In this document: in pieces, positions 378 through 40,809 of the stretch
Layout: every line of letters starts with the position of its first letter
How positions within the stretch are numbered: position 1 is the first letter of the stretch
Assembly (NCBI GenBank): GCA_037146775.1
Contig: JBAWWL010000001.1
Coordinates: 325,464 to 389,463 of the forward strand
Source: Candidatus Omnitrophota bacterium
GTDB taxonomy: Bacteria; Omnitrophota; Gorgyraeia; Duberdicusellales; 4484-171
Direction of reading: 5' to 3'
Length of the DNA stretch: 64,000 nt
Made by a program: the position numbers and the translations under genes
Notes under the pieces: model-generated
What the model was told of the DNA's origin: nothing
The model's input: only the letters and a program-made list of their open reading frames with translations
The model's database searches: none

Positions 378-380
378 ATT

Positions 381-22638: not shown

Positions 22639-22690
22639 CCAGACGACACCACACTATATATAGATTGTATTACGCAACAAACCAAGAAAG

Positions 22691-22845
22691 CAATGCGGTA
22701 ACCCCGCATCCAACCGCCAACAATTGGCTGCACAAAAAAATAAGCGCACCCAACCCAAAGTATCATGCGGCCAAAATGCATCCAACCGCCCCCTGATTTC
22801 CTGCGTCAAACAAGCTGACGCATTGAACCCCAGGTATTATGCGGA
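22691..22845. repeat. imperfect ~72-bp tandem repeats upstream of the integrase start (candidate arm-type or att sites)
   Basis: 'gcatccaaccgcc' at 22706 and 22778; '(t)at(c/t)atgcgg' at 22693, 22763 and 22837. Confidence 0.4.
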
Positions 22846-22921
22846 GAGAAGGCACAGCGCTTCCAGTAGCTTGCGAATTGCCTTTTTTGTCGTCTATTTG
22901 TCTATAAAGGGGAGGGAGTAT

Positions 22922-23350: not shown

Positions 23351-23383
23351 AAAAGAAAAAAACTAAAAAAACAAGAATAAAAA

Positions 23384-23404
23384 CTTTACACCCAAATAAC
23401 ACCC
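23384..23404 (-). promoter_or_regulatory. conserved motif copy (minus strand reads GGGTGTTATTTGGGTGTAAAG)
   Basis: lies 34 nt upstream of the minus-strand start at 23350. Confidence 0.45.
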
Positions 23405-23606
23405 TCACCTCGGGCACTGACTGAGTGTTTTCTGGTAGCTTATGCCATCGAGAGCGTCGCAATAATCCTCTCGGTAGTTTTCGTTGATTTGTGGCATAAA
23501 AAGCAGGAAGTCGCAATTGATAAGAATATTCTTGTTCAATAAAAGGATTTATATACAACTTCTTCCTTAAAGACTACAAATCATAAAGGAGTAAGAACGA
23601 ATAAAG

Positions 23607-25904: not shown

Positions 25905-25954
25905 ATCCAAAACCTTAAATAGAACACATGTGAATCAAACTTCCTCTAGGAAAG

Positions 25955-26812
25955 ATGGTAATAATAAACTATTGCACCAAATGTGGAAAGAAACTATCGA
26001 AAGAATATGATTTCTGTCCAGAATGCGGGAACCGTATTATTAACATAAAGAAAAAAGAAATATTAGTAACAACTCAGAAACAAACAGAATCATCTAATAA
26101 ATCTATTTGGTGGATAATTATCTTAATCGCAGTATTAATAATATTTGTGATTGTATCGATAGTATGCTTTTTAGTACCATTTAGTTATAGCTCAACAGAG
26201 GCATATTACGAAAAGGAACCATCTGCGTTACAAGAACAATATACTGAAAGTGTAATAAAATATCGACAAGTTCAGTCTGGTTATGATGAGAGTATCAGAC
26301 CTTTAGTAGACGAAGAGGGAAGTTATTATTCTCTCTTATCGCCAGGATTTAATGTGTGTACAGGTTGTTATGTCTCACTTACTATAGAAGCAAATTATCC
26401 TAAAGTTCCATTTAGATACATCATATCAGACCAATTTTTTGAGTGTAATAAAATATTCAGCGGAGAAGATGTTCCCAATGATGTCCAAAATATTGACCTC
26501 AGTCTTGGCACTCTTGATGTGGAGGATAGGGAAATTGGCCCAATCAATACAGATTCAACATTGTGTTTTGCAATTAGCGCAGTTGGTCCTCCAGGAAACA
26601 ACAACCAAAACATATACTCAAAGATTCAAATCAACCAAATAAGAAAGACTCCAATTATGATTTCTGAACCATATGAAACATCTGAGATTAGGAATAGGAC
26701 AGTAACCAACTATAAGGATGTAAAGAAAGAAAGGAATGTTACCAAATATGCTTCGATCTATAAGATTTGGACTAAACAGGTAGATTTCTATTATGTTCTA
26801 GGTCAAGAATGA
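25955..26812 (+). CDS. zinc-ribbon membrane protein, 285 aa
   Basis: N-terminal 'CTKCG...CPECG' zinc ribbon, one TM helix, then an extracytoplasmic domain. Confidence 0.5.
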   Translation: MVIINYCTKCGKKLSKEYDFCPECGNRIINIKKKEILVTTQKQTESSNKSIWWIIILIAVLIIFVIVSIVCFLVPFSYSSTEAYYEKEPSALQEQYTESVIKYRQVQSGYDESIRPLVDEEGSYYSLLSPGFNVCTGCYVSLTIEANYPKVPFRYIISDQFFECNKIFSGEDVPNDVQNIDLSLGTLDVEDREIGPINTDSTLCFAISAVGPPGNNNQNIYSKIQINQIRKTPIMISEPYETSEIRNRTVTNYKDVKKERNVTKYASIYKIWTKQVDFYYVLGQE

Positions 26813-26923
26813 GTAAAATAACTTGGATCATAATGGTTACTTTTTCAATTGTGCAAAAATGTAAGAAATAGTTTTTGCTTAGAAAGAAATCAAAAAAAAG
26901 AATCATATACCCATAAGCCGCCC

Positions 26924-27094
26924 TTATTTTGGGTAGTCTTTGAGCACTTTTTGGTATGAGAGGTCGCTTAGGGCGTAGTAGCTGTCTTTTTCGGTCTCAA
27001 TCATGTGGCCGAGCAAATACTTGATCTCGTTCACATCCTGACTAATTTTCAGCACTGCCTTCCTGCAACGCTCCTCAAGCGTTTCTTCAGCCAT
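26924..27094 (-). CDS. small hypothetical protein, 56 aa (coordinates approximate to within 1 nt)
   Basis: start overlaps the stop of the upstream small ORF, suggesting translational coupling; below the ORF-track cut-off. Confidence 0.25.
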   Translation of the reverse strand: MAEETLEERCRKAVLKISQDVNEIKYLLGHMIETEKDSYYALSDLSYQKVLKDYPK

Positions 27095-27096
27095 TC

Positions 27097-27282
27097 TCAG
27101 CCACCTTTTGAAAGGATGGCATCCATGTAGTGCCTGTGCATAATGTCAGTCCTGATGCTTTCTATGATGAGCCACTGACCATCTCTGCTCAGACGAATCT
27201 TTCTACTCAGCTTCGGCTGCTTTTCCTCAAAAACTTTCACTTCATTACTTACTTTTTCTTTTGCCATTTTCTGTTTCTCCAT
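27097..27282 (-). CDS. small hypothetical protein, 61 aa
   Basis: RBS-like AAGAGG upstream; part of a run of small minus-strand ORFs. Confidence 0.3.
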   Translation of the reverse strand: MEKQKMAKEKVSNEVKVFEEKQPKLSRKIRLSRDGQWLIIESIRTDIMHRHYMDAILSKGG

Positions 27283-27321
27283 CTATCATTTACCTCTTGT
27301 GTATGAGTGGGAGGGGGGCAT

Positions 27322-27522
27322 TTACTGCCGCCCCGTCCTGAATTGACAGCTTTCGCATTTCGAAGGGTCTTTGCATGCCTGACAAATAGCCTTTGCGTCA
27401 AGATGCTTCGGTAATTCCTTAAAGCACCAATCAAGCGCAAAAGTCATCGGCTTGCCAAGATGCCACGCAATCCTTCGCAGCGAGCAACTGTTTTCGTAGC
27501 TTAGCTCCGGGGTATAAGCCAT
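27322..27522 (-). CDS. small Cys-rich protein, 66 aa
   Basis: GAAAGGAG RBS 6 nt upstream; 'CQACKDPSKCESCQ' cluster. Confidence 0.35.
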   Translation of the reverse strand: MAYTPELSYENSCSLRRIAWHLGKPMTFALDWCFKELPKHLDAKAICQACKDPSKCESCQFRTGRQ

Positions 27523-27683
27523 TGATTCTCCTTTCTTTGATTTGACATTTCTGCCAAAAGCTTCCGCCCCTTACTGCTGTCAAAAGCCACGAACTCTAGA
27601 CACTTCTCAGGAATCGCTTTTCGAAACTCCCTCAGCCTAAAATCCACAGTGAAGCCTTTGAAGACAAGCAGCTTCGTAACCAT
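27501..27683 (-). CDS. small hypothetical protein, 60 aa
   Basis: AAAGGAGG RBS 8 nt upstream of the ATG. Confidence 0.35.
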   Translation of the reverse strand: MVTKLLVFKGFTVDFRLREFRKAIPEKCLEFVAFDSSKGRKLLAEMSNQRKENQWLIPRS

Positions 27684-27789
27684 AGCTAAACCTCCTTTCG
27701 TTAAAAAAAACCTATTCAGAAGTAGTAGCGAACAGAAATAAAAGGTTTACACCCCTTTTAATCCTAAGTGATGGGTGGTATTTGAGTGG

Positions 27790-28209
27790 TTAGTAGATGA
27801 GCTTATATTTTTTGTAAGGTTCTATTATTTTTATTGAGATGTACTCTTTGTTCTTAAGTTCTGGGTGTTGATTGAAAAATGATTTCATCGCAATTTTTAA
27901 TGAGGCTACGTGTTTTACCTCATCTTGGCCGTCTATGTTTAATATGAATTCTTGGCGGTCAGGGGGGAAGTATTTTCTGTCTTTAGTGCTTAATGTGGAT
28001 ACTCCCCAGTTGAAACATGTATCCACCAGTTTGACCTTTATTGATCCTGCGGAAAGAATTGGCATGTCTTCATTAATTTTGAAAGGTTTTCTAGGTTCAA
28101 ATTCTATTTCATCATTTTCTTGATATCCTAAGTAATCCATTAATTGTTTGTTGAAGGGTATGTAGTATTCCTGATTTATTTTTACGATGGTTGATATTAT
28201 TTTTCTCAT
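27790..28209 (-). CDS. hypothetical protein, 139 aa from the ATG (the ORF track begins at a TTG at 28236)
   Basis: ORF with balanced composition; an 18-bp perfect palindrome sits just upstream. Confidence 0.45.
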   Translation of the reverse strand: MRKIISTIVKINQEYYIPFNKQLMDYLGYQENDEIEFEPRKPFKINEDMPILSAGSIKVKLVDTCFNWGVSTLSTKDRKYFPPDRQEFILNIDGQDEVKHVASLKIAMKSFFNQHPELKNKEYISIKIIEPYKKYKLIY

Positions 28210-28340
28210 GTTATGCACCCCACATTGTTTAAACAATGTTTTAACAATGAGAAACCATTGCTAGTATAAAAATGTTTCTTTTTTTAAGAAAGTCGGGCCT
28301 TTTTTTAAGTCGTGCCCGGGACTTTTGTGGCGGCGGATTT

Positions 28341-28592
28341 TTAGTCAGTGTTGTATGCTTCAAGGACTCTTCCGCTCAATTCCTGCTTTGCTTCTTCGGA
28401 GAGGAGACTTACGGTTTCGTACCATCTGCCTTCTTTTCCTTTTTGCTTTGGCATGGAAACAAACAGGGAATCATCCTTTGCCGAAACGACTCTGACACCT
28501 TTTATCAGCACTTCTCCGCCAACAATTACGTCGGCAAATGCCTTAAGGTTTGAGCCGTTATCCATTCGATATAGCCTTGCAACTTCCAACAT
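28341..28592 (-). CDS. spoVG: SpoVG-family protein
   Basis: aligns with SpoVG along its length: 'MLEVARLYRM...LKAFADVIVGGEVLIKGVRVVSAKDDSLFVSMPKQKGKEGRWYETVSLLSEEAKQELSGRVLEAY' (GTG alternative start at 28601). Confidence 0.7.
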   Translation of the reverse strand: MLEVARLYRMDNGSNLKAFADVIVGGEVLIKGVRVVSAKDDSLFVSMPKQKGKEGRWYETVSLLSEEAKQELSGRVLEAYNTD

Positions 28593-28607
28593 ACCAACCA
28601 CCCCCTT

Positions 28608-28946
28608 TCACTTTGTGTGGCACCAGCCTTGTGCTTGCGCAATTAGCTGTACTTCCTTTGCTTTCTTTTTCTCCCAGTAGAGGTCTCTGTCAACTTCAAC
28701 AAACTTTATCCGAAGGTCGGATAGTTCGTTGAGGCTGAAGTTTCCCCATTCGGCCATTTCCAAGTCGCCGTTGAGCACCGCAAACCCAAAGAAGATTTCT
28801 TCCGCAGGGTCGTACTCTGTGGCAAACCAGTCACAGCCGCCAATGAAAAAGTGCATACAGATCACTTTTTCCTCTAAAGGCACGTCTTCTCCCGAATACA
28901 TGCGTGGGAGCTTTGCAAGCTCTTCTCTTGTGGGCTTATTCCACAT
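28608..28946 (-). CDS. DUF2958-like small protein (family typical of phages and conjugative elements)
   Basis: 'ELAKLPRMYSGE...HFFIGGCDWFATEYD...FFGFAVL...EMAEWGNFSLNEL' matches the DUF2958 pattern from memory; AAAGGAG RBS. Confidence 0.5.
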   Translation of the reverse strand: MWNKPTREELAKLPRMYSGEDVPLEEKVICMHFFIGGCDWFATEYDPAEEIFFGFAVLNGDLEMAEWGNFSLNELSDLRIKFVEVDRDLYWEKKKAKEVQLIAQAQGWCHTK

Positions 28947-29152
28947 GACAACTCTCCTTTCTCCGGGACATCAACCCAGATTTCTCCGTCAAGGTCAACC
29001 CAATCCAAAACTTCAACAGTTTCGTCTTGCAACTTCCGCTTAGGCATCCACAACACAACCACCCCCTTTCTTTTTTGCGGCAGATACGTAATTCGTCCAT
29101 ATCTGTCTAATTTGTTTTTACAAAGGAGTGGTATCAAGACAAATTAATAAGT

Positions 29153-29173
29153 TTTACACCCAAAAAACACCCG
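29153..29173 (-). promoter_or_regulatory. conserved motif copy (minus strand reads GGGTGTTTTTTGGGTGTAAAA)
   Basis: upstream of the DUF2958-SpoVG minus-strand operon. Confidence 0.45.
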
Positions 29174-29269
29174 AGAAGAAGTGAGGAAGGATTCACGAAA
29201 GAATTGCGTATTGAGGGAGGGGTTCGTTGGGGAAAGGTTTTTATATTGGGTTATTTGTAACTGTAAGAG

Positions 29270-29464
29270 GTGATTGTTATGGATAATGTGTTTGTAAAAT
29301 ATAATGGGAGAATTTTGTTTGTAGGTATTTTGATTCTTATTGCTGCGATAATTTTGGCTACGATTCCTTTAATGATATTTACATCGACGTTTTGGATGTT
29401 GATAGTTATTGGTGGTGGGCTTACCGGTTTTGCATTGAAATTTAGAAAACATAGTAAGAAATAG
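29270..29464 (+). CDS. small membrane protein, 64 aa, two TM helices
   Basis: two hydrophobic helices followed by a basic C-terminus. Confidence 0.35.
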   Translation: MIVMDNVFVKYNGRILFVGILILIAAIILATIPLMIFTSTFWMLIVIGGGLTGFALKFRKHSKK

Positions 29465-29586
29465 TTTAGTGCTTTCGAATTATAAATAACTACGTTATTT
29501 ATGTGCGCCCCTTAATTGTTGAGTCATAGGTCGAAATCTTTAAAGAGGGCGATGCCATGAAGTGAAGTGTTAATGAATTAGATTTT

Positions 29587-29925
29587 TTGAGGTGGATCAT
29601 TATGGGAGAAGGGAAGAATTGGAAGTTTGGTGTTTTCATTTTAGGTATTATCGGGTTGATACTGTTATTTAGTGCAGCAGCCGTATTAGGTGTGATTATA
29701 TTATTTATTGTCATTATGATTGTGCTGATACATGAGGGCTTAAAGAAGTCTGTAAAAGGTGGGCATAAGTCCTCTTCAGATAAAAAAAGGGATAAGCATA
29801 AATCTTCTTCAGATACTAATAAGCAAGATGAATCAGCTGCGTGGCGTCCTACTATATGGCAGCGAATCTATGAAAGGAAACTGTTGGAGAACAATGAGCG
29901 GAAACGTATTGAACTGAAGAAGTAA
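29587..29925 (+). CDS. membrane protein with a TM hairpin and a highly charged C-terminal tail (holin-like topology)
   Basis: hydrophobic stretch of about 40 aa followed by a K/S/D-rich tail. Confidence 0.4.
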   Translation: MRWIIMGEGKNWKFGVFILGIIGLILLFSAAAVLGVIILFIVIMIVLIHEGLKKSVKGGHKSSSDKKRDKHKSSSDTNKQDESAAWRPTIWQRIYERKLLENNERKRIELKK

Positions 29926-29999
29926 GATAGAGAAACCTTGATTCTTCTTTACACTTTTAAAACATAAATACTACGTATTTATTAGGTATCCCCACAGTT

Positions 30000-30362
30000 T
30001 TAAAAGTGTTGTGGCTTCTTGAAGAATATCGTCGGACTGAGGTATTTTGTTCTTTGCTGGTTGTTCCTGTGGTTGTATTTTTCCTTCAGGAGGAGAATTA
30101 TTGGTGCGTGAGCTATTATTTGGGGTTTTCCGGCCTCGTCGTCCATTTCCGCTCTCATCGTTCCCCAGAGCCTTACTGCTGTGCTTGTCGTTGAGAGAGT
30201 GCTGTGCTTAATCTTTCTTGCGAGCTTGCTGATTGGCGTCCATTGCGGATAGTTGGGGAGTTCTTCCAGCATCTTGATTGCTCTCTTTTCTTCTGAAGCT
30301 TCAAGGTGCAGATAGCTGACCTCCTGATGGAAGCTGATTAGTCTTAGTTTTTCTCGTTCCAT
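30000..30362 (-). CDS. hypothetical protein, 120 aa
   Basis: 19-nt overlap with the upstream ATPase gene. Confidence 0.4.
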   Translation of the reverse strand: MEREKLRLISFHQEVSYLHLEASEEKRAIKMLEELPNYPQWTPISKLARKIKHSTLSTTSTAVRLWGTMRAEMDDEAGKPQIIAHAPIILLLKEKYNHRNNQQRTKYLSPTIFFKKPQHF

Positions 30363-31753
30363 TTTTTTACCAGTTCTTTTAGTTCTTCGTCTGTTAGTTT
30401 CCTCGTTGGTAGTGGTGGGGGTGTTTTTATGAGGCAGTTTTTGGCTCTGCCTTTGACTTTGGCGAAGGCTTGGCCTAGCCAGATGTAATCAATGTATCTT
30501 GTCTCGTGCTGTTTGAGGAAGAGGCCGTTTGATACTGTTGACACGTCTTTGAATGTGTTTGCGGCAAAGTGTATTTGGGTTTTGCATTGGAAGGCGTAGT
30601 TTTTGAGTTCGCTGCATTCCTGAGCAAGCGTGACTACTCCCAGTCCTAGTTTTCTTCCTTCTCGATAAATGTTTTGTAGCGTGCCGTCGCCAAACATTCG
30701 TTCTTCTGTTGAAGAGGTCATCATGTTTTGGCTTTCTTCCATTATGAGAAGCATCCTTAGTTTTTCTGTTTCTCCGATGCTGAGGAAGTACAGCATGATG
30801 TAAAGCAACAAGGTTTCTTGGAATAGTATCCTTAGGCTGTTTGGGAGTTCTATGTCCATCTCAAGAATTGTAATTCCGGGTCTCTCAAGCATTTTGGATA
30901 TGTCCATTGGGTTTCTTGAGCCGAACAACTCTTTTGTGTTCGGCCTAAGCATTGAAGACAAAACCCTCATTGCACTGTCTTTCCAAAGTGAAGCCCTGCC
31001 GCGCAGGAATTGGTTATCTACCCTTTTTTTGATGTCTTCAATGTTTGGAAGCAGATGAAGTTTTCCCTGCTGATAGCCTTCCAGCAAATTTTCTGCCTCG
31101 TTCAGTATCAAGCTTCCTGATCCCTGCCCTGAGAGCAAAGATTTCGAGAGAGGCTTTTCAGAAATTATGCCTATCCAACTCAGTGGCGAAACGCCCGGAG
31201 GGGGTGAGAAGAAGAGGTTGTATCTGAACGGCGAAGTTTCCCTCCCTATGGTGTAAACCCGAATGTCTTTTACGAAAGGATAACTTTCTTTGGGCAGTTT
31301 ACACAGACTTGACCATGTCCTGTTCCAATCCACAATCCAAATAGGAACATTCTTCTCTGCCAACTGCACAGCGATATTGTAAGCAAGAGTAGTCTTTCCC
31401 GTTCCAGTAAGGCCAGTACAAAGAATATGATGCCTCAAATCATTCATGGACAGTTTCAGGGGATAAAGCTCCCTATCAGTCCCGTCACCGTTCCTTCCGT
31501 AGCATACCTGTCCGAGCGTTATTTCTCCCAATCCGCACTCTTCTTTGGTTGATGGCGGCAACATCGGCTGGTCTGGCAAAAGACTGTCATTTAAGAGCTT
31601 GTTTGCTGAGAGCTTCAATATTTTTGACAGTCGATCTTTTCGTTCCTCATCACCAATAGCATGAATCAGCTTGAGCTTTTCCGCTTTTTCCCGCCCCCAC
31701 GCAGGTTCGAGACGAAGGATAAGCTCGTCCGTCTGCTCATCAATCTGTATCAC
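30344..31753 (-). CDS. HerA/FtsK-superfamily (DUF87/AAA_10-like) P-loop ATPase, 469 aa
   Basis: 'RHHILCTGLTGTGKTTLAY' Walker A with a preceding conserved His; Walker B-like 'LLIMEESQNM'. Confidence 0.6.
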   Translation of the reverse strand: MIQIDEQTDELILRLEPAWGREKAEKLKLIHAIGDEERKDRLSKILKLSANKLLNDSLLPDQPMLPPSTKEECGLGEITLGQVCYGRNGDGTDRELYPLKLSMNDLRHHILCTGLTGTGKTTLAYNIAVQLAEKNVPIWIVDWNRTWSSLCKLPKESYPFVKDIRVYTIGRETSPFRYNLFFSPPPGVSPLSWIGIISEKPLSKSLLSGQGSGSLILNEAENLLEGYQQGKLHLLPNIEDIKKRVDNQFLRGRASLWKDSAMRVLSSMLRPNTKELFGSRNPMDISKMLERPGITILEMDIELPNSLRILFQETLLLYIMLYFLSIGETEKLRMLLIMEESQNMMTSSTEERMFGDGTLQNIYREGRKLGLGVVTLAQECSELKNYAFQCKTQIHFAANTFKDVSTVSNGLFLKQHETRYIDYIWLGQAFAKVKGRAKNCLIKTPPPLPTRKLTDEELKELVKKWNEKN

Positions 31754-32232
31754 TTCTGCTCACCCAGAATCTTCTTGTCTTGCTGCCCTTCAAGGCGCTT
31801 ATGCCACAGGTCTACAAACATCGAGGTTGGTTCTGACAGGTCTTCCCAAGCCTTAATTTTTTGTTCAAGAAGCAGGTTCTCTGTGCCTTTTTTTTCCTTT
31901 TCCAAAGCCATCCTTCGCCTCTCAATATTCATGTTATAACCAAGCTTAAACGAATAAAGCTGTCCGATCTCTTTAGAAAGCTCGTTCCACTGGTTTTCCA
32001 AAACTGAGACCGTGTTATTGTAAATCTTAAGCCTGTACGTAATACAGAAGGCAGTATTAACGACCTTATCCAAAAGCTTAGCCTCATCCATACCAAGAAT
32101 TGCTTCCAAAGAAAAGCCGCCATCCTGCGATTGAACAGCCTTTTGCGGAGTTGGCTGGTAGCGGGAGGAGTAGAGGTATCTCTCAAACACAGGCGTTCCG
32201 TACAGTGCTGGCTTGTAATTATTGAAGTCCAT
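31750..32232 (-). CDS. hypothetical protein, 160 aa, coupled to the HerA-like ATPase
   Basis: 4-nt overlap with the downstream ATPase; motif copy located upstream. Confidence 0.4.
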   Translation of the reverse strand: MDFNNYKPALYGTPVFERYLYSSRYQPTPQKAVQSQDGGFSLEAILGMDEAKLLDKVVNTAFCITYRLKIYNNTVSVLENQWNELSKEIGQLYSFKLGYNMNIERRRMALEKEKKGTENLLLEQKIKAWEDLSEPTSMFVDLWHKRLEGQQDKKILGEQK

Positions 32233-32267
32233 CTTAACTACACAGTAAAAACAAACCCATTAAAAAA

Positions 32268-32290
32268 GATTACACCCAAATAGCACCCGC
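32268..32290 (-). promoter_or_regulatory. conserved motif copy (minus strand reads GCGGGTGCTATTTGGGTGTAATC)
   Basis: lies 36 nt upstream of the start at 32232. Confidence 0.45.
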
Positions 32291-32639
32291 GTTTTAGGTG
32301 ATGATTGGCTGATAGATAGCTTCAATCCTAAATATGCTTTTCCTATCAAAGAAGGTATACCCATCGTTCTGTATAAGGTGGCCAATGTGGATGCCTCAAG
32401 TGTTTGGAATAGATTTTGTAACGTGCCCTAATGGGTCTTTCCTAAGCCCTTGATTCTTATGATGGTTATGGGTTTTGTGACTTAACCAAGCCCCCTATTC
32501 CTCCCTGATTTTTCCAGTTTTCCTTTATTAGCAGTTATGACGTTTCTCTTATATATGTGTAAAATTTATGCCTTAGCAACACAAGGCGACCCAAAATTTT
32601 TGAGAGCGGTCTGTCTTGACCAGAAAGGAGGTGAATTCT

Positions 32640-32771
32640 ATGGGATGTTTAGGGAAATGCGGCGAGTGTTTGAGGTTGAAGTGTGGGGGCGGCTGGGTTA
32701 CTGACGGGAAAAGGTATTACTGGCTGCCAAAACAAGAGAAACAGAAAATAAAAATGGGAGGTGCAAAATGA
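32640..32771 (+). CDS. Cys-rich micro-protein, 43 aa
   Basis: GGAGGTG RBS 7 nt upstream; 'MGCLGKCGECLRLKCGGGW'. Confidence 0.35.
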   Translation: MGCLGKCGECLRLKCGGGWVTDGKRYYWLPKQEKQKIKMGGAK

Positions 32772-32947
32772 GCGAGAGAATGCCTTGCAGTCATTGTGGA
32801 AAAAGCGGAACTACGCAGTATTCGTGTTGTTTCTACAAATTTTATGGCAGAAAACCTGGGTTTTTTGAGTCCATGGATTACGTGCAGTGTTGTGCTTGTA
32901 AAGGCACAGGCTATGAGCCGAAGGCTGCGCCCCTTTACAACATGTAA
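32768..32947 (+). CDS. Cys-rich zinc-finger-like micro-protein, 59 aa
   Basis: ATGA overlap with the previous ORF; GGAGGTG RBS; 'CSHCGKSG...CCACKGTG' (CxxCxGxG-like). Confidence 0.4.
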   Translation: MSERMPCSHCGKSGTTQYSCCFYKFYGRKPGFFESMDYVQCCACKGTGYEPKAAPLYNM

Positions 32948-33017
32948 AGGGTGGGAAAGTGAGGGGCGGCTAAAGTGTTTTTGGCCGCCTCTCCACTCAC
33001 AAAAAAAGGAATATGCT

Positions 33018-33761
33018 ATGAAAAGAATTAGGCTGTGGAAAAGAGACTACGACATCATCGAAAACTTAAAGAATGGTTTGTTTACAACCGGCCAGCTTGC
33101 CAAACTCTTTTTTAGTTCGCAAAAGAAAGCTGCTGAACGCCTCATATTATTATTCAAAGCCGGACTTGCCGATAGATTTCAGGCACCACTTGATGAGGCA
33201 AAGGGAAAGCCAGAATACGTCTACTGCAAAAAAAACGGGAAAATCCCCAAGAATTACAGCCATATCAAGCACAGCCTTGCAATAACTGATTTTTATGTAT
33301 GGCTCATCGAAAAGACAAAACAAGTTCAAGACATGGTTGCCAAATTTTATTATGGAACAACCCTCGAAGATAAGGGATTGCATGGCGGACTTTTGCTTCC
33401 TGACGCTTTTTTCGTTCTTGAGAAGGCAGACAAAAAGCTCCTGTATTTTGTCGAAATAGATTTGGGAACAGAAACCCTAAGGTCAGGATCAAACTACTCA
33501 TTTGAAGGAAAACTCGATTTATACGCCGACATTTTTGACAGCGAAGAATACAACAAATTCCTCAACCACAAATTCGTAGGCTTCAGACTGCTCTGTGTTT
33601 TTACATCACAAAAAAGGATGCAAAATTTTCTGGGAATCGCAAAAGAAAAGAACTCCGACTTTGTCTTGTGCTCAACATTTGATTCGCTCAAAAATTCTGA
33701 TTTTATCGAAAAAACATGGGCTGACATTTCAGGGAAGAAAGTTGGTTTGTCAGGAAAATAA
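33018..33761 (+). CDS. replication-relaxation-family protein (plasmid/ICE-associated), 247 aa from Met 33018
   Basis: 'FTTGQLAKLFF...AAERLILLFKAGLADR', 'HSLAITDFYVWL', 'GGLLLPDAFFVL', 'YFVEIDLGTE' match the family pattern; the ORF-track start at 32796 was rejected. Confidence 0.55.
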   Translation: MKRIRLWKRDYDIIENLKNGLFTTGQLAKLFFSSQKKAAERLILLFKAGLADRFQAPLDEAKGKPEYVYCKKNGKIPKNYSHIKHSLAITDFYVWLIEKTKQVQDMVAKFYYGTTLEDKGLHGGLLLPDAFFVLEKADKKLLYFVEIDLGTETLRSGSNYSFEGKLDLYADIFDSEEYNKFLNHKFVGFRLLCVFTSQKRMQNFLGIAKEKNSDFVLCSTFDSLKNSDFIEKTWADISGKKVGLSGK

Positions 33762-33779
33762 ATTTTAGAGGATAGGGTA

Positions 33780-34337
33780 GTGAAAATTCTTCCAACCCAA
33801 AAAGGATACAACATAGTTTACGCAGACCCGCCTTGGCGTTACGGCGCTCAGGGTAGCTCTTCTTGGATGGGGCGAGGAGCGAAAAAGCACTATCCGACTA
33901 TGAATTTGGAAGACATAAAGAACCTGAAAATTCCGTGCGGCAAAGATTGCGTACTTTTCTTATGGGTAGTTTTTCCACTACTAAAAGAAGGATTACAAGT
34001 AATGGACGCATGGGGCTTCAAATACAAAACCGTAGCCTTCGTCTGGATTAAGCTAAACAAGAAAAACAAAGAACCATTCTGCGGCATGGGCTCATGGACA
34101 AGGTCAAACGCAGAAATTTGCCTGCTTGGAACAAGAGGAAAAAACAAGCGAACGAGTGCCAAAGTAAGACAAGTAATCATTTCGGAAAGAAGGGAACACT
34201 CACGAAAGCCCGACGAAGTACGAGACAGAATAATTCAACTCATGGGAGATAATCCAAGAATAGAACTCTTTGCTAGACAGAAAAATGAAGGTTGGGATGT
34301 TTGGGGAAACGAAGTAGACAAATTCGGGACGAATTAA
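33780..34337 (+). CDS. MT-A70-family N6-adenine DNA methyltransferase (orphan)
   Basis: 'YADPPWRY' DPPW motif; 'HSRKPDE...ELFARQKNEGWDVWGNE'. Confidence 0.8.
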   Translation: MKILPTQKGYNIVYADPPWRYGAQGSSSWMGRGAKKHYPTMNLEDIKNLKIPCGKDCVLFLWVVFPLLKEGLQVMDAWGFKYKTVAFVWIKLNKKNKEPFCGMGSWTRSNAEICLLGTRGKNKRTSAKVRQVIISERREHSRKPDEVRDRIIQLMGDNPRIELFARQKNEGWDVWGNEVDKFGTN

Positions 34338-34340
34338 GCA

Positions 34341-34371
34341 GGGGATTAGGTTGGGGATTTGGTCGGGGATT
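34341..34371. repeat. three direct GGGGATT repeats spaced 12 bp apart (iteron or operator-like)
   Basis: 'GGGGATTaggttGGGGATTtggtcGGGGATT'. Confidence 0.5.
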
Positions 34372-34494
34372 AAGCCCCTGTATAGGAATGGCGTAACTGG
34401 CAGAAAACAAGCGGGAAGCAACAAATTGGCAGAAGCCAATACCCCTTGAAACAGTGACAGGGGATACATAACTCAAAATACAAAGGAGTACCTA

Positions 34495-36828
34495 ATGAAA
34501 AACCAACAAAGAATACAAGACTTCATGACAGAAATGTTCCTAGGTAATGCAAGAAATAATTACCAATACGAATGTGGCCGTTGGAGCCTTCCTGCCGTTT
34601 ACCCTTACCAGATTTGCGCCGAACCCATTTTTGAACTTTTTGACCCAATGCAGACTTACTCACTATCCACCAATACCGCCAGATTGGTCAGAAGGGTTAG
34701 TAGTAGCAGTAGTAGTAGTCGGGTAGTAAGGGAAGTAAAGCTAAATTATTTTGAAAAAGTTGAGTGGCTAAAGTTTGAGAGCTTGCTTAATTGTTTTTCC
34801 GCCTTTGAGAAATCGGTAAGCTTCGAAATTTTCTGCCTAAATGGTTCTGTAACTTTCTTTATCGGCAGTGCTTCTTTGGATCAGCTAAATATTGTCTGCA
34901 ATGTTTTCCAGAGCTACTTTCCCGGCACTGTTTTTAGGGAAGTTCCTGATCCTTTGCTGACCTTAAATGATTGCGGAGAGGGATTTTTTGTTTGCGATTT
35001 TTACTGCTCTGCTCCTTATCACAAAAAGGTATCTTCTGACAGGACGGTTGGTTGCCTTAATTCTGTTTTCAAAACATTCTCTGGCCTGAAGAGCGGGGAG
35101 TGCGGTTTTTATCAGGTCATCTTTGAGCCTGCAAAGGATGAATGGGGCAAAAACGTCAAGGCTCTTAGTGCCGCAGAAAAGCTTGCAAGCAACACCTATC
35201 CTTCCGGCGCAAGCCCCTCTGATGGCTTCAAAGACGCGGCTTTGCCTTTGTATGCCTGCCGGGTACGCTTGGGCTGTGTTGTTGGGAAGGATAGCGGTGT
35301 TGTTGACGCTATTAAGCAGTTTGGCAGTTGTTTTGTTCATGGCGGAAAAGCCTTGAGTTTTCGGACTGAAAAGGACTTTCTTGACGTTGTAAAAAAACGG
35401 GATGTGGCCGAAATGGTTGGCGGCAGATTCGGGTTTTGTTCCGGCCTTTTGCTTGACACCAAGGAGCTTGCTTCTTTTGTTTACTTTCCTGACCGAAGCA
35501 TTACCAGTTTTGGGCTAAAGATTAACTTCACAAGAGGATTTATGGTGAGCAAAGCTTTGCTATCAGGCCGCCCAATAGGATTTAGCTGCTCAAGCGGCAG
35601 CGATGACGTCATCTGCCTGCCAACAAACATTCAGAACAAGTGCATGTGGATTCTTGGCACTGCAAGGAAAGGCAAAAGTGTTTCGATGGCTAATCAGTTC
35701 CTTTGGCTTGCAGACAACGGCGACGGAGCGGATTTTATTGATCCTCACCGCACAACAGTATTTGAACTCCTCGGTCTCTTGCCCGATGAAGTCTTAGATA
35801 GGGTTATTTATTTGGATTATGACGATGACGATTATGTTGTGGACTTCAATCCTTTTGATGAAGCTGATGAAGAGTCTTTTGGCAGGCTGACTATCGAGTT
35901 TGTGAACAGCTTCAAGAACCTGTTTGAGGCGGCAAGTTTCCACCGCATGAGCCATTTGCTTAGGATGGCGGTTTATGCCCTCTTTGTACTGAAAAAAAAT
36001 ATCAGCAGTATTCCTGCTCTTTTTTCCCGGACAGATGAGGGAGATGCTTTAAGGAAGGCTGTTGTTGATAAGTGCAAAAATGAAGAGGTGACGCGGTTTT
36101 GGAAAAGCGAGTTTTATGGTTATCGTAAAGATGCTTTTAGCCCAATCCTTAACAGGTTTTCCGCACTTCTTATGGACGCTAAGGCTTCGCGTATTTTCTC
36201 AAGAGAAAAAAACAAGGTTGATTTGGCAGACGCTATGGATTCCGGCAAGTTATTGCTTGAGGCGTTGCCTAACAGCATTGATGTTTCCGGGATTATCGGT
36301 GGAATGAGGATTGGGCAGACTCAGAAATGCGCTTTTGCCCGGACAGCAAAAAGGGATAGTTGCCGCAGAGAGTTTCATTTGTTGGTCGATGAGTTTCACC
36401 GTTTTTCTACAGGCAAAACGCTTGAGAGCATCATTAACGAAACTGTAAAGGCTGGACTTCATTTGTGCGCGGCTAATCAGGAGACTGCGCAACTTAGTGA
36501 TGAGTTGTTGAGGGCTGTTTTGAGCATGCCGAACATCATGTTGTTCAATGTCAATTTCTTGGATGCAAAGAAGCTGTTGCCTGTTTTCAATAATCGTATA
36601 GGTGTTGAAGACATTACAGGGCTTGGTGTGGGGGAGTGTTTTGTTAAGTTTGGTGATGAGATTGTGGACGTTAAATGTTTTGCGCCTAGAAAGGATTATT
36701 CAGAAGAAAAGGCCAAAAGAATCATTGAGGAGAGCAGAAAAAAATATTACACACCAGTCTCTATGCTCCAAAAAGAAAAACCAGAAGCAAGAGGCGAGAA
36801 GCGCGCAAGAATTATTGACTCATTCTAA
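34495..36828 (+). CDS. large P-loop NTPase of the VirB4/HerA/T4CP class, 777 aa (possible DNA-transfer ATPase)
   Basis: Walker A 'GTARKGKS', Walker B 'HLLVDEFHRF', downstream 'CAANQETAQL'; Ser-run encoded by an AGT repeat near the N-terminus. Confidence 0.5.
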   Translation: MKNQQRIQDFMTEMFLGNARNNYQYECGRWSLPAVYPYQICAEPIFELFDPMQTYSLSTNTARLVRRVSSSSSSSRVVREVKLNYFEKVEWLKFESLLNCFSAFEKSVSFEIFCLNGSVTFFIGSASLDQLNIVCNVFQSYFPGTVFREVPDPLLTLNDCGEGFFVCDFYCSAPYHKKVSSDRTVGCLNSVFKTFSGLKSGECGFYQVIFEPAKDEWGKNVKALSAAEKLASNTYPSGASPSDGFKDAALPLYACRVRLGCVVGKDSGVVDAIKQFGSCFVHGGKALSFRTEKDFLDVVKKRDVAEMVGGRFGFCSGLLLDTKELASFVYFPDRSITSFGLKINFTRGFMVSKALLSGRPIGFSCSSGSDDVICLPTNIQNKCMWILGTARKGKSVSMANQFLWLADNGDGADFIDPHRTTVFELLGLLPDEVLDRVIYLDYDDDDYVVDFNPFDEADEESFGRLTIEFVNSFKNLFEAASFHRMSHLLRMAVYALFVLKKNISSIPALFSRTDEGDALRKAVVDKCKNEEVTRFWKSEFYGYRKDAFSPILNRFSALLMDAKASRIFSREKNKVDLADAMDSGKLLLEALPNSIDVSGIIGGMRIGQTQKCAFARTAKRDSCRREFHLLVDEFHRFSTGKTLESIINETVKAGLHLCAANQETAQLSDELLRAVLSMPNIMLFNVNFLDAKKLLPVFNNRIGVEDITGLGVGECFVKFGDEIVDVKCFAPRKDYSEEKAKRIIEESRKKYYTPVSMLQKEKPEARGEKRARIIDSF

Positions 36829-36859
36829 AAACACAAAACCAAAAAGGGAGGTGTTTACC

Positions 36860-37480
36860 ATGTTTGCTGCAAAAAGCGTAAAAGAAGTAATTGCATTACT
36901 GCACGTAGACGTCATCGCGGAACAAATCGAAAGCGTACACAAAATCATTCGGGAAAGCTACAAAGTCAAAAAATACGTTGTGGAGGACTATGAGGAATTC
37001 AAAAATGAGATTTCGAGGTATTACCAGTATCACTTCAGCATGTGGATAGATGCAGACTCAATAATGCCTCCTGATCTTGCACACACAAGAGCGCGCAACA
37101 TACTAAAGAATCAGCCAAACACAAATCTGCCAGAGATTCGAGACGTCTTGGGCAGCTCTGGCGAAAACGGCTACACAATATCTTACAAAAACGCAAAAAC
37201 AGGCCGCTACGGAGGACTAATAGGCGTTATCGACGCCCTTGCGGAAGGGATTAAAAATGACGCCATATCCAAATACGTCTCAGCAGTCTTCCTCGACTGC
37301 GTTAACCCAATGGACTTCGACAAAAAAATATATTTCATCCAAGAATACCTAAAAACGTACGGACAGATATTGCTTCCGGGGGAAGAATTCCTAAGCATAT
37401 ACGAACTAGCAAACGACCTAGAAGCAATAATACAAAACCACGTAAAAATAATAAACGAATTCAGAAAAAAATTGCAATAA
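36860..37480 (+). CDS. hypothetical protein, 206 aa
   Basis: ATG with AAGGGAGGTG RBS; the 5' extension in the ORF track overlaps the ATPase gene and was rejected. Confidence 0.45.
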   Translation: MFAAKSVKEVIALLHVDVIAEQIESVHKIIRESYKVKKYVVEDYEEFKNEISRYYQYHFSMWIDADSIMPPDLAHTRARNILKNQPNTNLPEIRDVLGSSGENGYTISYKNAKTGRYGGLIGVIDALAEGIKNDAISKYVSAVFLDCVNPMDFDKKIYFIQEYLKTYGQILLPGEEFLSIYELANDLEAIIQNHVKIINEFRKKLQ

Positions 37481-37787
37481 ATTGTGTTTTAAGCGCGGAG
37501 GTTTCTTGATGAGTCTGCTTCCAAGTAAGGCTATTAGTTATGCAGTGATTGTTTTTTTGTGCGCAGTGTTTTTTGGTTTAGTAATAAAATTTTGGTAAGG
37601 ACTTGGAGGTGTGTTGATTGATGAACAACAAGGCGCAGAGAAGTTTGGATGGTTTTGATGAAAAGAAGAGGTTGCAGCGTTTTTATGCGATTCTTCTTGA
37701 TGCAGACCTTGCATGCTTTTCTGACCTTATCGAGAAACGCAGGAGGTACAAGAAATAGTTCTTTACAAAACCCTACAAATACCTATA

Positions 37788-37988
37788 ATGTTTGCTATGG
37801 ACAAGAAGAGCAAGACTTACAACATTCCAAAGACGGCAGAGTTTCTTGGTGTGCATGAGATGACGATTCGGTATTGGATTCGCAAAAAATGGGTGACGCC
37901 TCAGCGCGATTACAGAAACTATCCTGTATTTACGGACGAGGACATAAAGAAGATTGAGCTGTGGCGTAACACTTTGAGGAAGCCATGA
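37788..37988 (+). CDS. excisionase-like HTH protein (candidate recombination directionality factor)
   Basis: 'IPKTAEFLGVHEMTIRYWIRKKWV' MerR/Xis-type HTH; 4-nt overlap with the recombinase start. Confidence 0.6.
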   Translation: MFAMDKKSKTYNIPKTAEFLGVHEMTIRYWIRKKWVTPQRDYRNYPVFTDEDIKKIELWRNTLRKP

Positions 37989-39619
37989 AAGTAGCGATAT
38001 ACACGAGAGTTTCTACTGAAGACCAAGTGCGTGAGGGGACTTCTCTTGAGGTTCAGAGGGAGTATCTTGAGGCTTTTGCCAAAAGAGAAGGATGGACAAT
38101 TTATTATCCTGAACGCGGAAAAATTTATATGGACGATGGTTACAGCGGGAACTTGCGGGATAGGCCAGCACTGAACCGGCTACTTTTTGATGCTAGGGCA
38201 AAAAAGTTTGACATTGTTCTGGTCTACAAGATAGATCGCTTTGCTAGAAATAATCGCATGCTCCTGAATCTTGTTGAAGAACTCAGCGAGCTAGAAATTG
38301 GTTTTAAAAGTGCAACAGAATCTTTTGATACAGTGAGTGCTGCTGGAAAAATGGCACTGAGCATGCTTGGAACAGTAGCACAGTTTGAGAGGGACAGAAT
38401 CATTGAGCGCGTATTTCCCGGAATGGTCAAAGGAGTCCAGCGCGGCAATTGGCAGGGCGCAAGATACTCGCCATACGGCTACAGCTACAACAAAGAAAAA
38501 AAAGTCCTCGAAGTAGTAAAAGAGGAAACGGAAATAGTCAAACTTATTTATACGATGTATCTTGCAAACCAAAGCACACCACAAATCGCGGGCTACCTAT
38601 ACAAGAAAGCATACAAGACCAGAAGCGGCGGAAAATTCCACACAAAACTCATAGGCGATATTTTGAAAAATCAGGTTTACTTGGGAAAGCTTGTGTGGAA
38701 CCGACACCACTATGACCAGAAGCAAAAGACAAGAAGGGGATACAAGTATGTAAAGAATGAAGCTTCGAAAATAATTGTTGCTGATGGAAGACACCAACCA
38801 ATAATAAATCCAGAAGATTTTTTGCTAGTACAAGACAAGCTAAAAGGCAACAGGCGAGGAGTCATGCATCGGGCAGGAGTAAAAGAATACCCCCTCTCAG
38901 GAATCTTGTTCTGCGCTAAGTGCGGCCACAAATATTTGGGAGCAGCAAACATATCTAATCATCGCGAAAAAATAAAGAAGAGATGGTACAGGTGCAACGC
39001 CCGCCAAGTACACTTCATCAAGTGCCCGAACAACTCTATTCGCGCAGAAATCTTAGAGCCACAAATTTATGGCATCATCGAAACCATCCTTCAACACCCA
39101 GAAACGACCTCTACGCGCATGCAAAACATAGTAAAGACGAGAATGGAGATAGGCGACACTGATCTCAAGGCAGAGAAAGAAGACTTGAAGGATGCTCTAC
39201 GAAAGAACCTTGAGAAGCAGCACAAGCTGAACGATACCTACTTAGCAGACCTCTTAGCAATAGAAGTATACAAAGACCAATCAATCCTTCTGCGCGAAGA
39301 AGAGAAGGAGCTAAAGAAGGCCATAGCCAAAGCAGACATGAAACTTGTCGAAAAAGAACGCTCACAAGAATACGAACGACTCCTGCGAAGAATTACAGAA
39401 AATTTTGAAGACACAAAGAAAAAAATAGATATAGTAACCAAAAAAGAGCTGCTTCAACTCGTATTCAAAAGAATAGTGGTAAATGACGGCAAAATAGAGG
39501 ACTTTGAACTATACAAGCCCTTCAAAAGGCTTTATGAGGAGCAAAAATGCAAGACAAAACCAATAGCGACAGCCACAAAGGACGACTCGTATATATTGCA
39601 ACCTACGGCTGTCAGATGA
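37985..39619 (+). CDS. large serine recombinase (integrase), 544 aa
   Basis: resolvase N-domain 'VAIYTRVSTEDQ...YMDDGYSGNLRDRPALNRLL...VLVYKIDRFARN'; recombinase domain; Zn-ribbon 'CAKCGHK...RCNARQVHFIKCP'; coiled coil. Confidence 0.9.
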   Translation: MKVAIYTRVSTEDQVREGTSLEVQREYLEAFAKREGWTIYYPERGKIYMDDGYSGNLRDRPALNRLLFDARAKKFDIVLVYKIDRFARNNRMLLNLVEELSELEIGFKSATESFDTVSAAGKMALSMLGTVAQFERDRIIERVFPGMVKGVQRGNWQGARYSPYGYSYNKEKKVLEVVKEETEIVKLIYTMYLANQSTPQIAGYLYKKAYKTRSGGKFHTKLIGDILKNQVYLGKLVWNRHHYDQKQKTRRGYKYVKNEASKIIVADGRHQPIINPEDFLLVQDKLKGNRRGVMHRAGVKEYPLSGILFCAKCGHKYLGAANISNHREKIKKRWYRCNARQVHFIKCPNNSIRAEILEPQIYGIIETILQHPETTSTRMQNIVKTRMEIGDTDLKAEKEDLKDALRKNLEKQHKLNDTYLADLLAIEVYKDQSILLREEEKELKKAIAKADMKLVEKERSQEYERLLRRITENFEDTKKKIDIVTKKELLQLVFKRIVVNDGKIEDFELYKPFKRLYEEQKCKTKPIATATKDDSYILQPTAVR

Positions 39620-40809
39620 ATGTTCGCGATAGCGAGGCGCTTCTGGGGCTTTTTTTAGAAAAAGGTTATAAACAAGCGCGGGGTTATGAAGACGCAGACG
39701 TAATCTTGCTTAATACTTGTTCGGTACGTGCTCACGCCGAACATCGCGTCCAGTCCATTATAGGCTCTTTTAAGAAACTATTCAGACTCAATACTCACGA
39801 CTCGCGACTAAATACTAAAAAAATAATTGGCCTTATTGGTTGCATGGCACGTAGTCAAGGCCAGGAAATTTTTAAGCGTATGCCGCATGTAAATTTGATC
39901 TGTGGGCCGGCAAGTTTGCATAAAATACCGGAATATGTAGATAGGATCTCAAAGCGCAAAGTGCAAAGTGTAAAACAAGAAAACAACTTACGAATAATTG
40001 ATTTAGAGGATATAGACAGGGAGGAAGAATTTTACGATGCTGGATTTAGGGTAGACTCGGATCATGCGCAGGTAGTGATCTCAACTGGTTGTTCTAACCA
40101 CTGCTCTTACTGTGTGGTTCCTTTTGTGCGAGGCGCGTTGCGCTTACGCGCTCCGCAGGATATTATCGCAGAAGTTAAGCGTAATGTCGTACTTGGTATC
40201 AAAAAAATTACACTTCTGGGGCAAAATGTGAATGATTACCAATTTAACCCACAGTCTATAGTTTGCGGTAGACACGCTAAAAATGTTATACTCAATACTC
40301 AATACTCACAACTCAATACTAAAGTTAATTTTGTTGATTTATTAAAAATGGTAGAAGAAGTAGAGGGGGTTGAGGAAATTGATTTTCTTACACCACATCC
40401 TAAAAATACGACCAAAGAACTATTTAAATTAATGGCCAAATCAAAGAAAATAAAAAAGTACTTACATTTGCCATATCAGGCCGGTTCTGATAGAATCTTA
40501 AAGCTTATGAATAGGGGTTACACCAAGAAAGAATATCTTACGTTAGCAAAGGACTATAAAACTATTGTCGGCGGCACTATAGGAACGGATATCATAGTTG
40601 GTTTTCCTACTGAAACCGAGGAAGATTTTCAACATACCAGAGATATTTTAGAAAAAGTTAAGTTTATGGGCGCCTATATTTTTAAATATTCACCCCGTCC
40701 CCATACAGAAGCTTTAAGCTTGGATGATAATGTTTCTTTGGCAGTTAAAGAAAAACGCCACAAGATCCTTTTAGATTTACAAAAAGAGATTTCAAATTCA
40801 TGCAGATAA
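39547..40809 (+). CDS. miaB: MiaB-family tRNA methylthiotransferase (radical SAM); C-terminal TRAM domain apparently absent
   Basis: 'VYIATYGCQMNVRDSE', 'LLNTCSVR', radical-SAM 'GCSNHCSYCVVP'; 420 aa; 5' end overlaps the recombinase 3' end. Confidence 0.75.
   Translation: MQDKTNSDSHKGRLVYIATYGCQMNVRDSEALLGLFLEKGYKQARGYEDADVILLNTCSVRAHAEHRVQSIIGSFKKLFRLNTHDSRLNTKKIIGLIGCMARSQGQEIFKRMPHVNLICGPASLHKIPEYVDRISKRKVQSVKQENNLRIIDLEDIDREEEFYDAGFRVDSDHAQVVISTGCSNHCSYCVVPFVRGALRLRAPQDIIAEVKRNVVLGIKKITLLGQNVNDYQFNPQSIVCGRHAKNVILNTQYSQLNTKVNFVDLLKMVEEVEGVEEIDFLTPHPKNTTKELFKLMAKSKKIKKYLHLPYQAGSDRILKLMNRGYTKKEYLTLAKDYKTIVGGTIGTDIIVGFPTETEEDFQHTRDILEKVKFMGAYIFKYSPRPHTEALSLDDNVSLAVKEKRHKILLDLQKEISNSCR

Follow-up and report, generated by a model that had tools for sequence, protein, structure and literature searches.

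Elements inserted by large serine integrases are known to split host genes, as SPbeta does in spsM, skin in sigK, and A118 in comK, and insertions of this type inactivate the target gene until excision. The locus described here was found in a window of 64,000 nt from a Candidatus Omnitrophota bacterium (assembly GCA_037146775.1, contig JBAWWL010000001.1, positions 325,464 to 389,463); the window is the whole stretch of DNA that was analysed, and positions refer to it unless otherwise stated. In this window, the open reading frame (ORF) of a large serine recombinase, hereafter the integrase, runs into the 5' end of miaB. The locus has in common with SPbeta, skin, and A118 the enzyme class, the placement of short att sites within protein-coding genes, and a small protein that accompanies the integrase and controls its direction, for which there is a candidate here. 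Unlike them, the element carries a surrogate 5' end for its target, so miaB should stay functional. The analysis makes it very probable that a 42-kb island was inserted in miaB by its own serine integrase, with a surrogate start supplied to the gene and the 3' end of the integrase ORF changed on integration.

In the integration-dependent immunity of mycobacteriophages such as BPs, as Broussard and colleagues are said to have described in 2013, attP lies inside the repressor gene, and integration removes an ssrA-like degradation tag and with it alters the stability or activity of the repressor. As in BPs, attP lies here inside a gene of the element and integration alters the C-terminus of the product; unlike BPs, the gene is the integrase, and the tail (ending in PYLSRIW) has no resemblance to an ssrA-like tag.

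The dusA-associated integrase (DAI) islands and prophages depend on tyrosine integrases that use one site at the 5' end of dusA, and rimO, a MiaB-like gene, is listed as another reported target (Farrugia et al. 2015, PMC4482086). Like DAI elements, the present one has a dedicated integrase family, enters a tRNA-modification gene at a single site in its 5' end, and restores that end. Unlike the tyrosine recombinases of DAI elements, it uses a large serine recombinase with a 2-bp crossover, its target is miaB itself, and its integrase ORF crosses the att site. In Myxococcus phage Mx8, the integrase gene contains attP, so that int acquires a different 3' end on integration; a review reports that this modifies the behaviour of the integrase (PMC6070905). 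The present locus resembles Mx8 in having attP within the integrase coding sequence and a recombinant int with a new 3' end; it differs from Mx8, which has a tyrosine recombinase and other attB sites, in that the last ~18 residues alone are exchanged, as known from sequence alone. In the literature searched, the coverage of which was incomplete, no miaB-targeting serine integrase and no serine integrase ORF spanning attP was found, and the attP-spanning layout was met with for the tyrosine integrase of Mx8 only. The insertion itself appears ordinary; the predicted exchange of the tail of a serine integrase and the use of a Cys codon as the target across phyla would be the unusual parts. The locus offers a fully mapped case, from a little-studied phylum, of a defence island that occupies a housekeeping gene without destroying it.

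Attachment sites and the crossover point

The integrase is, by its domain order, a large serine recombinase: a Resolvase region (residues 3-156) is followed by Recombinase (180-289) and then by Zn_ribbon_recom (303-361). The YTRVSTEDQ motif with its catalytic-type Ser was invariant in the alignments A2 and A4, and long helices span residues 395-477 in the AlphaFold2 (AF2) model of the homologue P0172. The integrase and miaB ORFs overlap by 73 nt (39547-39619, ~24 codons) in different frames, and the integrase stop TGA (39617-39619) falls within the miaB codons CAG ATG AAT, which encode Q-M-N of the conserved GCQMN motif. An earlier note on this DNA, made from the letters of the window, had reported this overlap of ~24 codons and read it as an element integrated in the 5' end of miaB, with an att core within 39,540-39,630 and a matching attL to be sought to the left; the ORF coordinates, the crossover, and the attL described below bear it out.

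The left junction was located on the same contig outside the window. In the public contig CAZTHQ010000016.1 (L092; 78,146 bp), position p + 4082 corresponds to window position p, and attL lies at L092 1501-1502, 2,581 bp left of window position 1. A reading frame at L092 1463-1546 begins with ATG AAT AAA, reaches the crossover as TTC GGT TG, and continues with G CCA ATG to a TAG stop; it consists of what looks like a native MiaB start, MNKKGRVYIKTFG, with an arm of the element attached at TG. When attL (..TTCGGT TG GCCAATG..) was compared with attR (..CTACGGC TG TCAGATG..), TG was the only stretch of common bases at the junction. Because attL and attR have only TG in common, the 2-bp crossover could be fixed at window positions 39610-39611, corresponding to L092 1501-1502. 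This TG belongs to the Cys codon of the conserved MiaB motif TFGCQMN (T-[F/Y]-G-C-Q-M-N).

The two parental sites were rebuilt from these junctions. The outer halves (B arm, TG, and B' arm) gave attB (...ATCAAGACATTCGGTTGTCAGATGAATG...), an intact miaB encoding MNKKGRVYIKTFGCQMNVRDSE (MNKKGRVYIKTFGCQMN...); this MiaB start is normal and similar to those of homologues P0003 and P0004. The inner halves gave attP (...GCAACCTACGGCTGGCCAATGGGTGCAG...), which has the dyad symmetry TCGTATA..CGGC TG GCC..TATACGA. The predicted sites therefore combine a 2-bp crossover with an imperfect attP dyad, as in serine-integrase systems. The locus also shows the arrangement of an island that regenerates its target: both junctions are present, a displaced gene fragment lies at the far end, and the outer halves rebuild the target. 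All four att sites are thus defined together with the crossover, attL and attR as observed and attB and attP as rebuilt.

The same exchange point was obtained from other genomes. When attR and attL were aligned with the attP (L096) and the attL (L101) of related elements and with a native miaB (L004), the switch of partners fell exactly at TG. In an independent pair of related metagenome contigs, L008 and L009, the integrases were 100% identical up to ...TTTCGGCTG (...ACTTTCGGCTG) and diverged thereafter; L009 reads into miaB (CCAAATGAAC...), and L008 continues as GCCGATGTCTACCCTATAGACA..., an attP-type arm that completes a perfect dyad TCGGC-TG-GCCGA. The point of divergence and the dyad of L008 therefore locate the exchange at the TG within the Cys codon of miaB. 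In addition, the P' arm GCCGATGGGTGCAGTATTATACGA.. occurs in 13 metagenome contigs of the Joint Genome Institute (JGI), in most cases behind a short miaB-like 5' end, and a long integrase-frame ORF before this arm was found in 0 of the 13. Sequence evidence thus establishes both junctions and the point of crossover, attB and attP as rebuilt, and the recurrence of the arrangement across many genomes.

Within the window, no second GCQMN-type peptide was present in any frame, and no repeat of 39450-39720 longer than 12 nt was detected on either strand. Two candidates for attL inside the window were rejected: a 'GRCLPC' match at 36846 proved to be the ribosome-binding site of the next gene, and TTCGGCTG at 27212 sits within small minus-strand ORFs. 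An RNA gene as the target was likewise rejected, since ARAGORN found no tRNA in the window, L002, L008, L009, or L011, and Rfam gave no match at the junctions.

According to the proposed mechanism, the integrase would have recombined attP with attB inside the 5' coding region of miaB, with exchange at the TG of the Cys codon. The P arm would imitate the MiaB N-terminus, so that attR would keep miaB complete, and the native promoter, the start codon, and the first 13 codons would have been left 42 kb away at attL.

The integrase tail and the mobility of this copy

The integrase ORF crosses the att site, a point absent from the earlier note. In the integrated form (544 aa), the protein ends in ..PTAVR, and its last two residues and stop are encoded by host DNA. 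The free form rebuilt from the P arm, TG, and the P' arm ends in ..PTAGQWVQYYTTIVPYLSRIW at 560 aa and carries an 18-residue tail, GQWVQYYTTIVPYLSRIW; integration thus shortens the integrase by 16 residues. The integrated and free forms encode different C-termini, which is the layout of attP inside int known from Mx8. After excision, the integrase ORF would run into the P' arm and gain the tail, and by analogy with the int of phage Mx8 this would change the activity or stability of the integrase.

Natural homologues with long tails exist. The homologue P0172 (57% identical overall) really ends in GRWVQYYTTFVPYLSRIR, and its contig has an attP-type junction followed by defence cargo; because this C-terminus closely matches the rebuilt tail, the latter is no random read-through. 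In the AF2 model of P0172, the folded part ends near residue 523 and is followed by a disordered linker at 525-548 (predicted local distance difference test score, pLDDT, < 50) and a helix at 550-567. The linker matches the segment that also encodes the MiaB start in another frame, and since it is disordered, dual coding would be cheap for the integrase.

The tail looks like a genuine, selectable appendage. A competing explanation, which comes close to an even chance without reaching it, is that the swap has no function, the ORF running to the first stop past the crossover and the P' arm being conserved as an integrase-binding site. Several points weigh against a functional tail and for this alternative: the first ~25 nt of the tail are the P' half-site, nearly invariant at all codon positions, so that conservation of the proximal tail, which overlaps the integrase-binding P' arm, could partly reflect constraint on the DNA; the tails differ strongly between subfamilies; and the tail helix of P0172, of moderate to low confidence (pLDDT ~59), is not docked onto the protein. 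Beyond the half-site, however, the stop is at the same codon in 11 of 11 distinct sequences while the codon itself varies (TAA, TGA, or TAG), and the other reading frame of the P' arm has no conserved stop position. Codon differences in the distal tail were 105 synonymous versus 101 non-synonymous, more synonymous than neutral change gives, and the tails of L008 and L011 (Velamenicoccus archaeovorus) differ by seven synonymous codons and one non-synonymous codon. A further point for a functional tail is the Mx8 tyrosine integrase, in which the same gene layout alters the behaviour of the enzyme (PMC6070905). If the tail matters, it would give serine integrases a new and self-contained level of control over direction.

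A more far-reaching reading, put forward tentatively and doubtful as a whole, takes the C-terminal remodelling for a built-in state sensor, with a third tail at an inverted attP-like site and an invariant FeS-Cys codon as the target across phyla. The full-length enzyme of the free element, with its helical tail, would then be integration-competent, and the tail-less enzyme of the integrated element would differ in direction, activity, or stability. Flipping of the integrase cassette at the second, inverted attP-like site of relatives would give the third tail.

In one homologue, P0239 (551 aa), the integrase body is fused in frame to a MiaB/RimO-like N-terminus (..FFAPKVFIRTFGCQMNDADSEVMERLL..), presumably through a 1-nt frame change or deletion at the junction.

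Several results weigh against the account given here. The empty attB of the window species had no exact match in the JGI metagenomes, and the 90%-identity protein cluster contained no 560-aa free form, all four of its members being the 544-aa integrated form. Attachment junctions of the attP type were seen for related elements only (L014, L016, L096, and L008, the left flank of which lies off the contig). The closed chromosome of V. archaeovorus (CP019384, about 670,400; L011 11600-11701) has an intact attP-type junction with a long tail, GRCLPYRHSMADLAEALIGAD, and no miaB within 10 kb on either side; this junction is unaccounted for by the rule that a long tail denotes the excised form. Host-like genes (a Na/H exchanger and a two-component system) lie behind it.

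The current mobility of the window copy is unproven, because no empty attB was found and the protein cluster consists entirely of the integrated form. These same two results, together with the possibly composite nature of the island and its second, tyrosine-type integrase at 21328-22638, would fit an island that was inserted at miaB and is now a fixed fossil, the integrase, att sites, and tail ORF being recent leftovers. We regard this as unlikely, though worth serious consideration, since the integrase, the upstream helix-turn-helix (HTH) gene, and the two junctions are all intact, no interruption occurs in the P' tail ORF at attL, which stops at the position conserved in the family, and the related elements named above were assembled with attP-type junctions.

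The start of miaB at the right junction

The P arm (39536-39609) provides miaB with a Shine-Dalgarno sequence and an ATG-initiated stretch of 21 codons, and the gene at attR therefore encodes a complete MiaB. The surrogate codons, MQDKTNSDSHKGRLVYIATYG, end in the conserved [VIL]x[IVL]xT[FY]G strand, and the native start stranded at attL encodes a 27-residue peptide only, which agrees with the proposal of the earlier note that the element supplies a replacement terminus (39547-39609 for the stranded MNKKGRVYIKTFG). A surrogate start was present in the P arm of every related element inspected, each encoding a peptide of the form M...[VIL]x[IVL]xT[FY]G. In two relatives without an adjacent integrase (L001 and L004), the N-termini of MiaB and the upstream DNA differ from those in the window, so the comparison through which the earlier note might have fallen leaves it standing.

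The public annotation begins MiaB at Met24 (ATG 39616; P0001, 397 aa), as do several gene calls for homologues, and if this were the true start, nothing would have been replaced and the upstream 23 codons would lie outside MiaB. This is very improbable. A start at 39616 would lose the GCQMN Cys, which is kept in all full-length MiaB homologues, together with the [VIL]x[IVL]xT[FY]G strand that is present in every one of them, and the Pfam UPF0004 match begins at residue 15 of the long form. The shortened calls sit where the integrase ORF overlaps (checked for P0001 and P0009) and so look like an artefact of gene calling. Because the Met24 start drops the conserved Cys and ATG 39547 is preceded at 5 nt by GAGGAG, as read from the sequence, the overlap of the two genes is real and no effect of chance or annotation.

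The closest MiaB homologues were all annotated as MiaB of Candidatus Omnitrophota, and the host genes downstream of miaB follow the order of the relatives (TPR/SPOR protein, miaA, hflX, clpB, and hrcA-grpE-dnaK). Transcription of miaB by read-through from the element, suggested in the earlier note, is plausible: a sigma-70-like promoter candidate precedes the genes for the HTH protein, the integrase, and miaB, and the plus strand in 37400-40000, the integrase-miaB junction included, showed no terminator-like site. Such pattern matches occur at chance frequency (four promoter-like sites found, with 4.7 expected by chance for the region), which tells against giving this candidate weight.

Some features of MiaB in this clade were observed in passing. 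The MiaB of the window and all 120 MiaB homologues match UPF0004 and Radical_SAM only, with no TRAM domain; in the Omnitrophota clade the protein stops right behind the radical-SAM core, with its gene overlapping the next one, which encodes the TPR/SPOR protein, and in L009 the two are fused into a protein of 598 aa. Hypervariable low-complexity inserts occur in the homologues at two fixed positions, residues ~76-92 and ~229-258, corresponding to ~39770-39830 (FRLNTHDSRLNTKK) and ~40230-40320 (NPQSIVCGRHAKNVILNTQYSQLNTKVN) in the window. The inserts of other homologues (HVLRPTSHV.., AMHYAPCAMP, and the like) vary, and all look like short repetitive DNA placed in frame.

In L001, where no serine integrase adjoins miaB, the 5' part of its coding sequence (6017-6056) is a perfect 40-nt palindrome (TGACATCCAAACGTCTTTAT / ATAAAGACGTTTGGATGTCA), and about 2 kb upstream, near 4027 on the minus strand, a relic miaB-like arm is followed by a third kind of arm. 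The palindrome and the relic arm may be the scar of a decayed element.

Partner gene, cargo, and relatives of the integrase

The features of the locus are collected in Table 1. The stop of the 66-aa HTH gene overlaps the integrase start (37985 versus 37988). The protein is 48-57% identical to counterparts in L030 (WOR-1), L011, and L002, and the gene directly precedes the integrase in L030 and L011 and lies 2.5 kb before it in L002, so that this partner is conserved across phyla. Its synteny and DNA-binding fold fit a dedicated partner of the integrase, and the protein, named excisionase in the earlier note, is a candidate directionality factor or regulator; as the former, it would act on the direction of recombination.

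Table 1. Features of the miaB island and its junctions. Positions are those of the window unless L092 is given.
Feature	Position	Strand	Remarks
Window part of the ~42.19-kb integrated island (right-hand 39.6 kb)	1..39611	+	Left end, attL, outside the window at L092 1501-1502
DUF2779 protein with Cas4-like nuclease similarity	L092 1724-3208		Immediately before the PDC-M27 genes
PDC-M27A-like protein, 412 aa	L092 3221-4459		Ends at window 377; PADLOC PDC-M27A, E 4.7e-15
PLD-like protein	381-2303	+	PADLOC PDC-M27B, E 4.5e-41; Pfam
SNF2-type helicase, 1,279 aa	2291-6130	+	PADLOC PDC-M27C, E 4.8e-95; Pfam
Type I restriction-modification HsdR	6796-9585	+	Pfam EcoEI_R_C/ResIII
Type I restriction-modification HsdS	9582-10811	+	Pfam Methylase_S
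191-aa ORF	between HsdS and HsdM	+	
Type I restriction-modification HsdM	11414-12898	+	Pfam N6_Mtase
C5 cytosine methylase (Dcm), HATPase_c_3 protein, Z1-domain protein, HNH nuclease	13044..19475	+	Pfam; PADLOC MTase_II, Helicase_II, mREase_IV
Tyrosine integrase inside the island	21328..22638	-	Pfam Phage_integrase, E 9.5e-10; PHROG integrase
DUF87/HerA-like ATPase	30344-31753	-	Maintenance/mobilisation-like; Pfam/PHROG
Replic_Relax protein	32796-33761	+	Maintenance/mobilisation-like; Pfam/PHROG
MT-A70 methylase	33780-34337	+	Maintenance/mobilisation-like; Pfam/PHROG
777-aa uncharacterised protein	34495-36828	+	Maintenance/mobilisation-like; Pfam/PHROG
Sigma-70-like promoter candidate before the HTH-integrase(-miaB) gene string	37762..37789	+	TTTACA-16-TATAAT, 11/12 matches; pattern match
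Small MerR/HTH_17-type DNA-binding protein, 66 aa	37788..37988	+	Pfam MerR_1, E 5.5e-7; weaker HTH_17 similarity; alternative start 37797
Large serine recombinase (integrase), integrated form, 544 aa	37985..39619	+	Resolvase E 2.2e-35, Recombinase E 2.5e-20, Zn_ribbon_recom E 1.2e-11; PHROG integrase E 3.8e-117
Element-borne Shine-Dalgarno GAGGAG for the surrogate miaB start	39536..39541	+	Read from sequence
Dual-coding P arm of att	39547..39609	+	Surrogate MiaB N-terminus (21 codons); other frame is the poorly conserved C-terminal linker of the integrase
Chimeric miaB	39547..40809	+	Codons 1-21 element-derived, host-derived from the Cys22 codon on; UPF0004 E 9.7e-27, Radical_SAM E 2.6e-23
attR (P arm, TG, B' arm)	39585..39640	.	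Approximate extent, estimated from the 40-50 bp of other large-serine-integrase sites
Crossover dinucleotide TG	39610..39611	.	First two bases of the MiaB Cys22 codon TGT
Host-derived end of the integrase ORF	39612..39619	+	Most of the Val codon, the Arg codon, and TGA; codons GCT (39608-39610) GTC AGA TGA

All of the window DNA upstream of miaB is accessory, and several of its proteins have no family match. Three genes near attL match the A, B, and C components of the PADLOC candidate defence system PDC-M27. In the gene group at 30344..36828, PHROG matches included phrog_9381 ('replication initiation by nicking') and phrog_5156. In a search for the genes of an integrative and conjugative element, the Replic_Relax protein, the DUF87/HerA-like ATPase, and the uncharacterised 777-aa protein were all that was met with, and no recognisable type IV secretion system set was found among the ORFs scanned. 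A PHROG scan of ten proteins for phage genes returned one weak terminase-like P-loop match (E 2e-7, without a full stretch). The cargo of the island consists of genes for restriction and defence. From its internal tyrosine integrase, the 42-kb island may be composite or contain a nested element; this gene is situated mid-island and is flanked by ORFs without a family match.

The distribution of the integrase family was surveyed in the best 120 integrase homologues. In 89 of these, the protein ends in [AVDGS][VA][KR] followed by a stop, which is the shifted reading of the miaB G-C-Q-M codons, with the stop placed in the conserved miaB CAR-ATG-AAY; these proteins are from Omnitrophota. The remaining 31 mostly have longer tails, and a few are truncated or fused in frame. 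Of the 22 loci inspected, 18 have an integrase that runs directly into miaB, and loci of the family occur in genome collections in Omnitrophota, Elusimicrobia, a curated complete WOR-1 genome, and metagenome-assembled genomes labelled Planctomycetia. Because the family recognises a sequence fixed by the invariant MiaB Cys motif, it should be possible to predict attB in very diverse bacteria, a property that matters in practice for serine-integrase tools. That no mobile element is involved, and that a resident chromosomal recombinase gene merely overlaps miaB, can be dismissed as the least probable explanation of all: short overlaps are common between neighbouring bacterial genes and there is no sharp G+C change at the junction, but attL with the displaced native start of miaB lies 42 kb upstream, attB as rebuilt forms an intact gene, miaB occurs in relatives that lack the recombinase there, and the same junction recurs in many genomes with unrelated cargo.

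An inverted copy of the last 146-177 nt before the crossover, comprising the integrase 3' end and the surrogate miaB start, was observed in 12 of 22 related loci, 1.7-6.2 kb upstream and at 98.7-100% identity (L002 1286-1462/5820-5996; L010 319-475/2927-3083; L030 9534-9696/11393-11555; also L008, L009, L013, L014, L016, L017, L021, L023, and L024). The smallest unit, 2,022 bp, is in the complete WOR-1 genome. The complete left copies also end at TG and are followed by a third kind of arm (RCCYTTGG..TTTACAA), which continues the integrase frame as an alternative tail (DPWFVLYKSL.., GLLFRLYNVLFSFFNIQ), and the left copy has the look of an additional attP-like site in inverted orientation. For one element, assemblies with each of the three junction types exist (L009/L010, L008, and L110); since the repeat exceeds assembler k-mers in length, L110 may be a mis-join, and inversion in the relatives is an unproven candidate. 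An invertible segment was rejected as a model for the window, which has no such repeat.

In three relatives, a ~70-nt motif (AAGGCAAKCGCACAAAGTCCG..GGAAATCCGAAGGATTGAARCCRGACGACTGCGATTGC) with GC-rich hairpins is conserved 0.3-0.8 kb beyond the inverted repeat (L002 ~800-880, L001 ~3100-3180, and L017 ~6240-6320 on the minus strand). The motif had no Rfam match, and it could be a small RNA or a protein-binding site.

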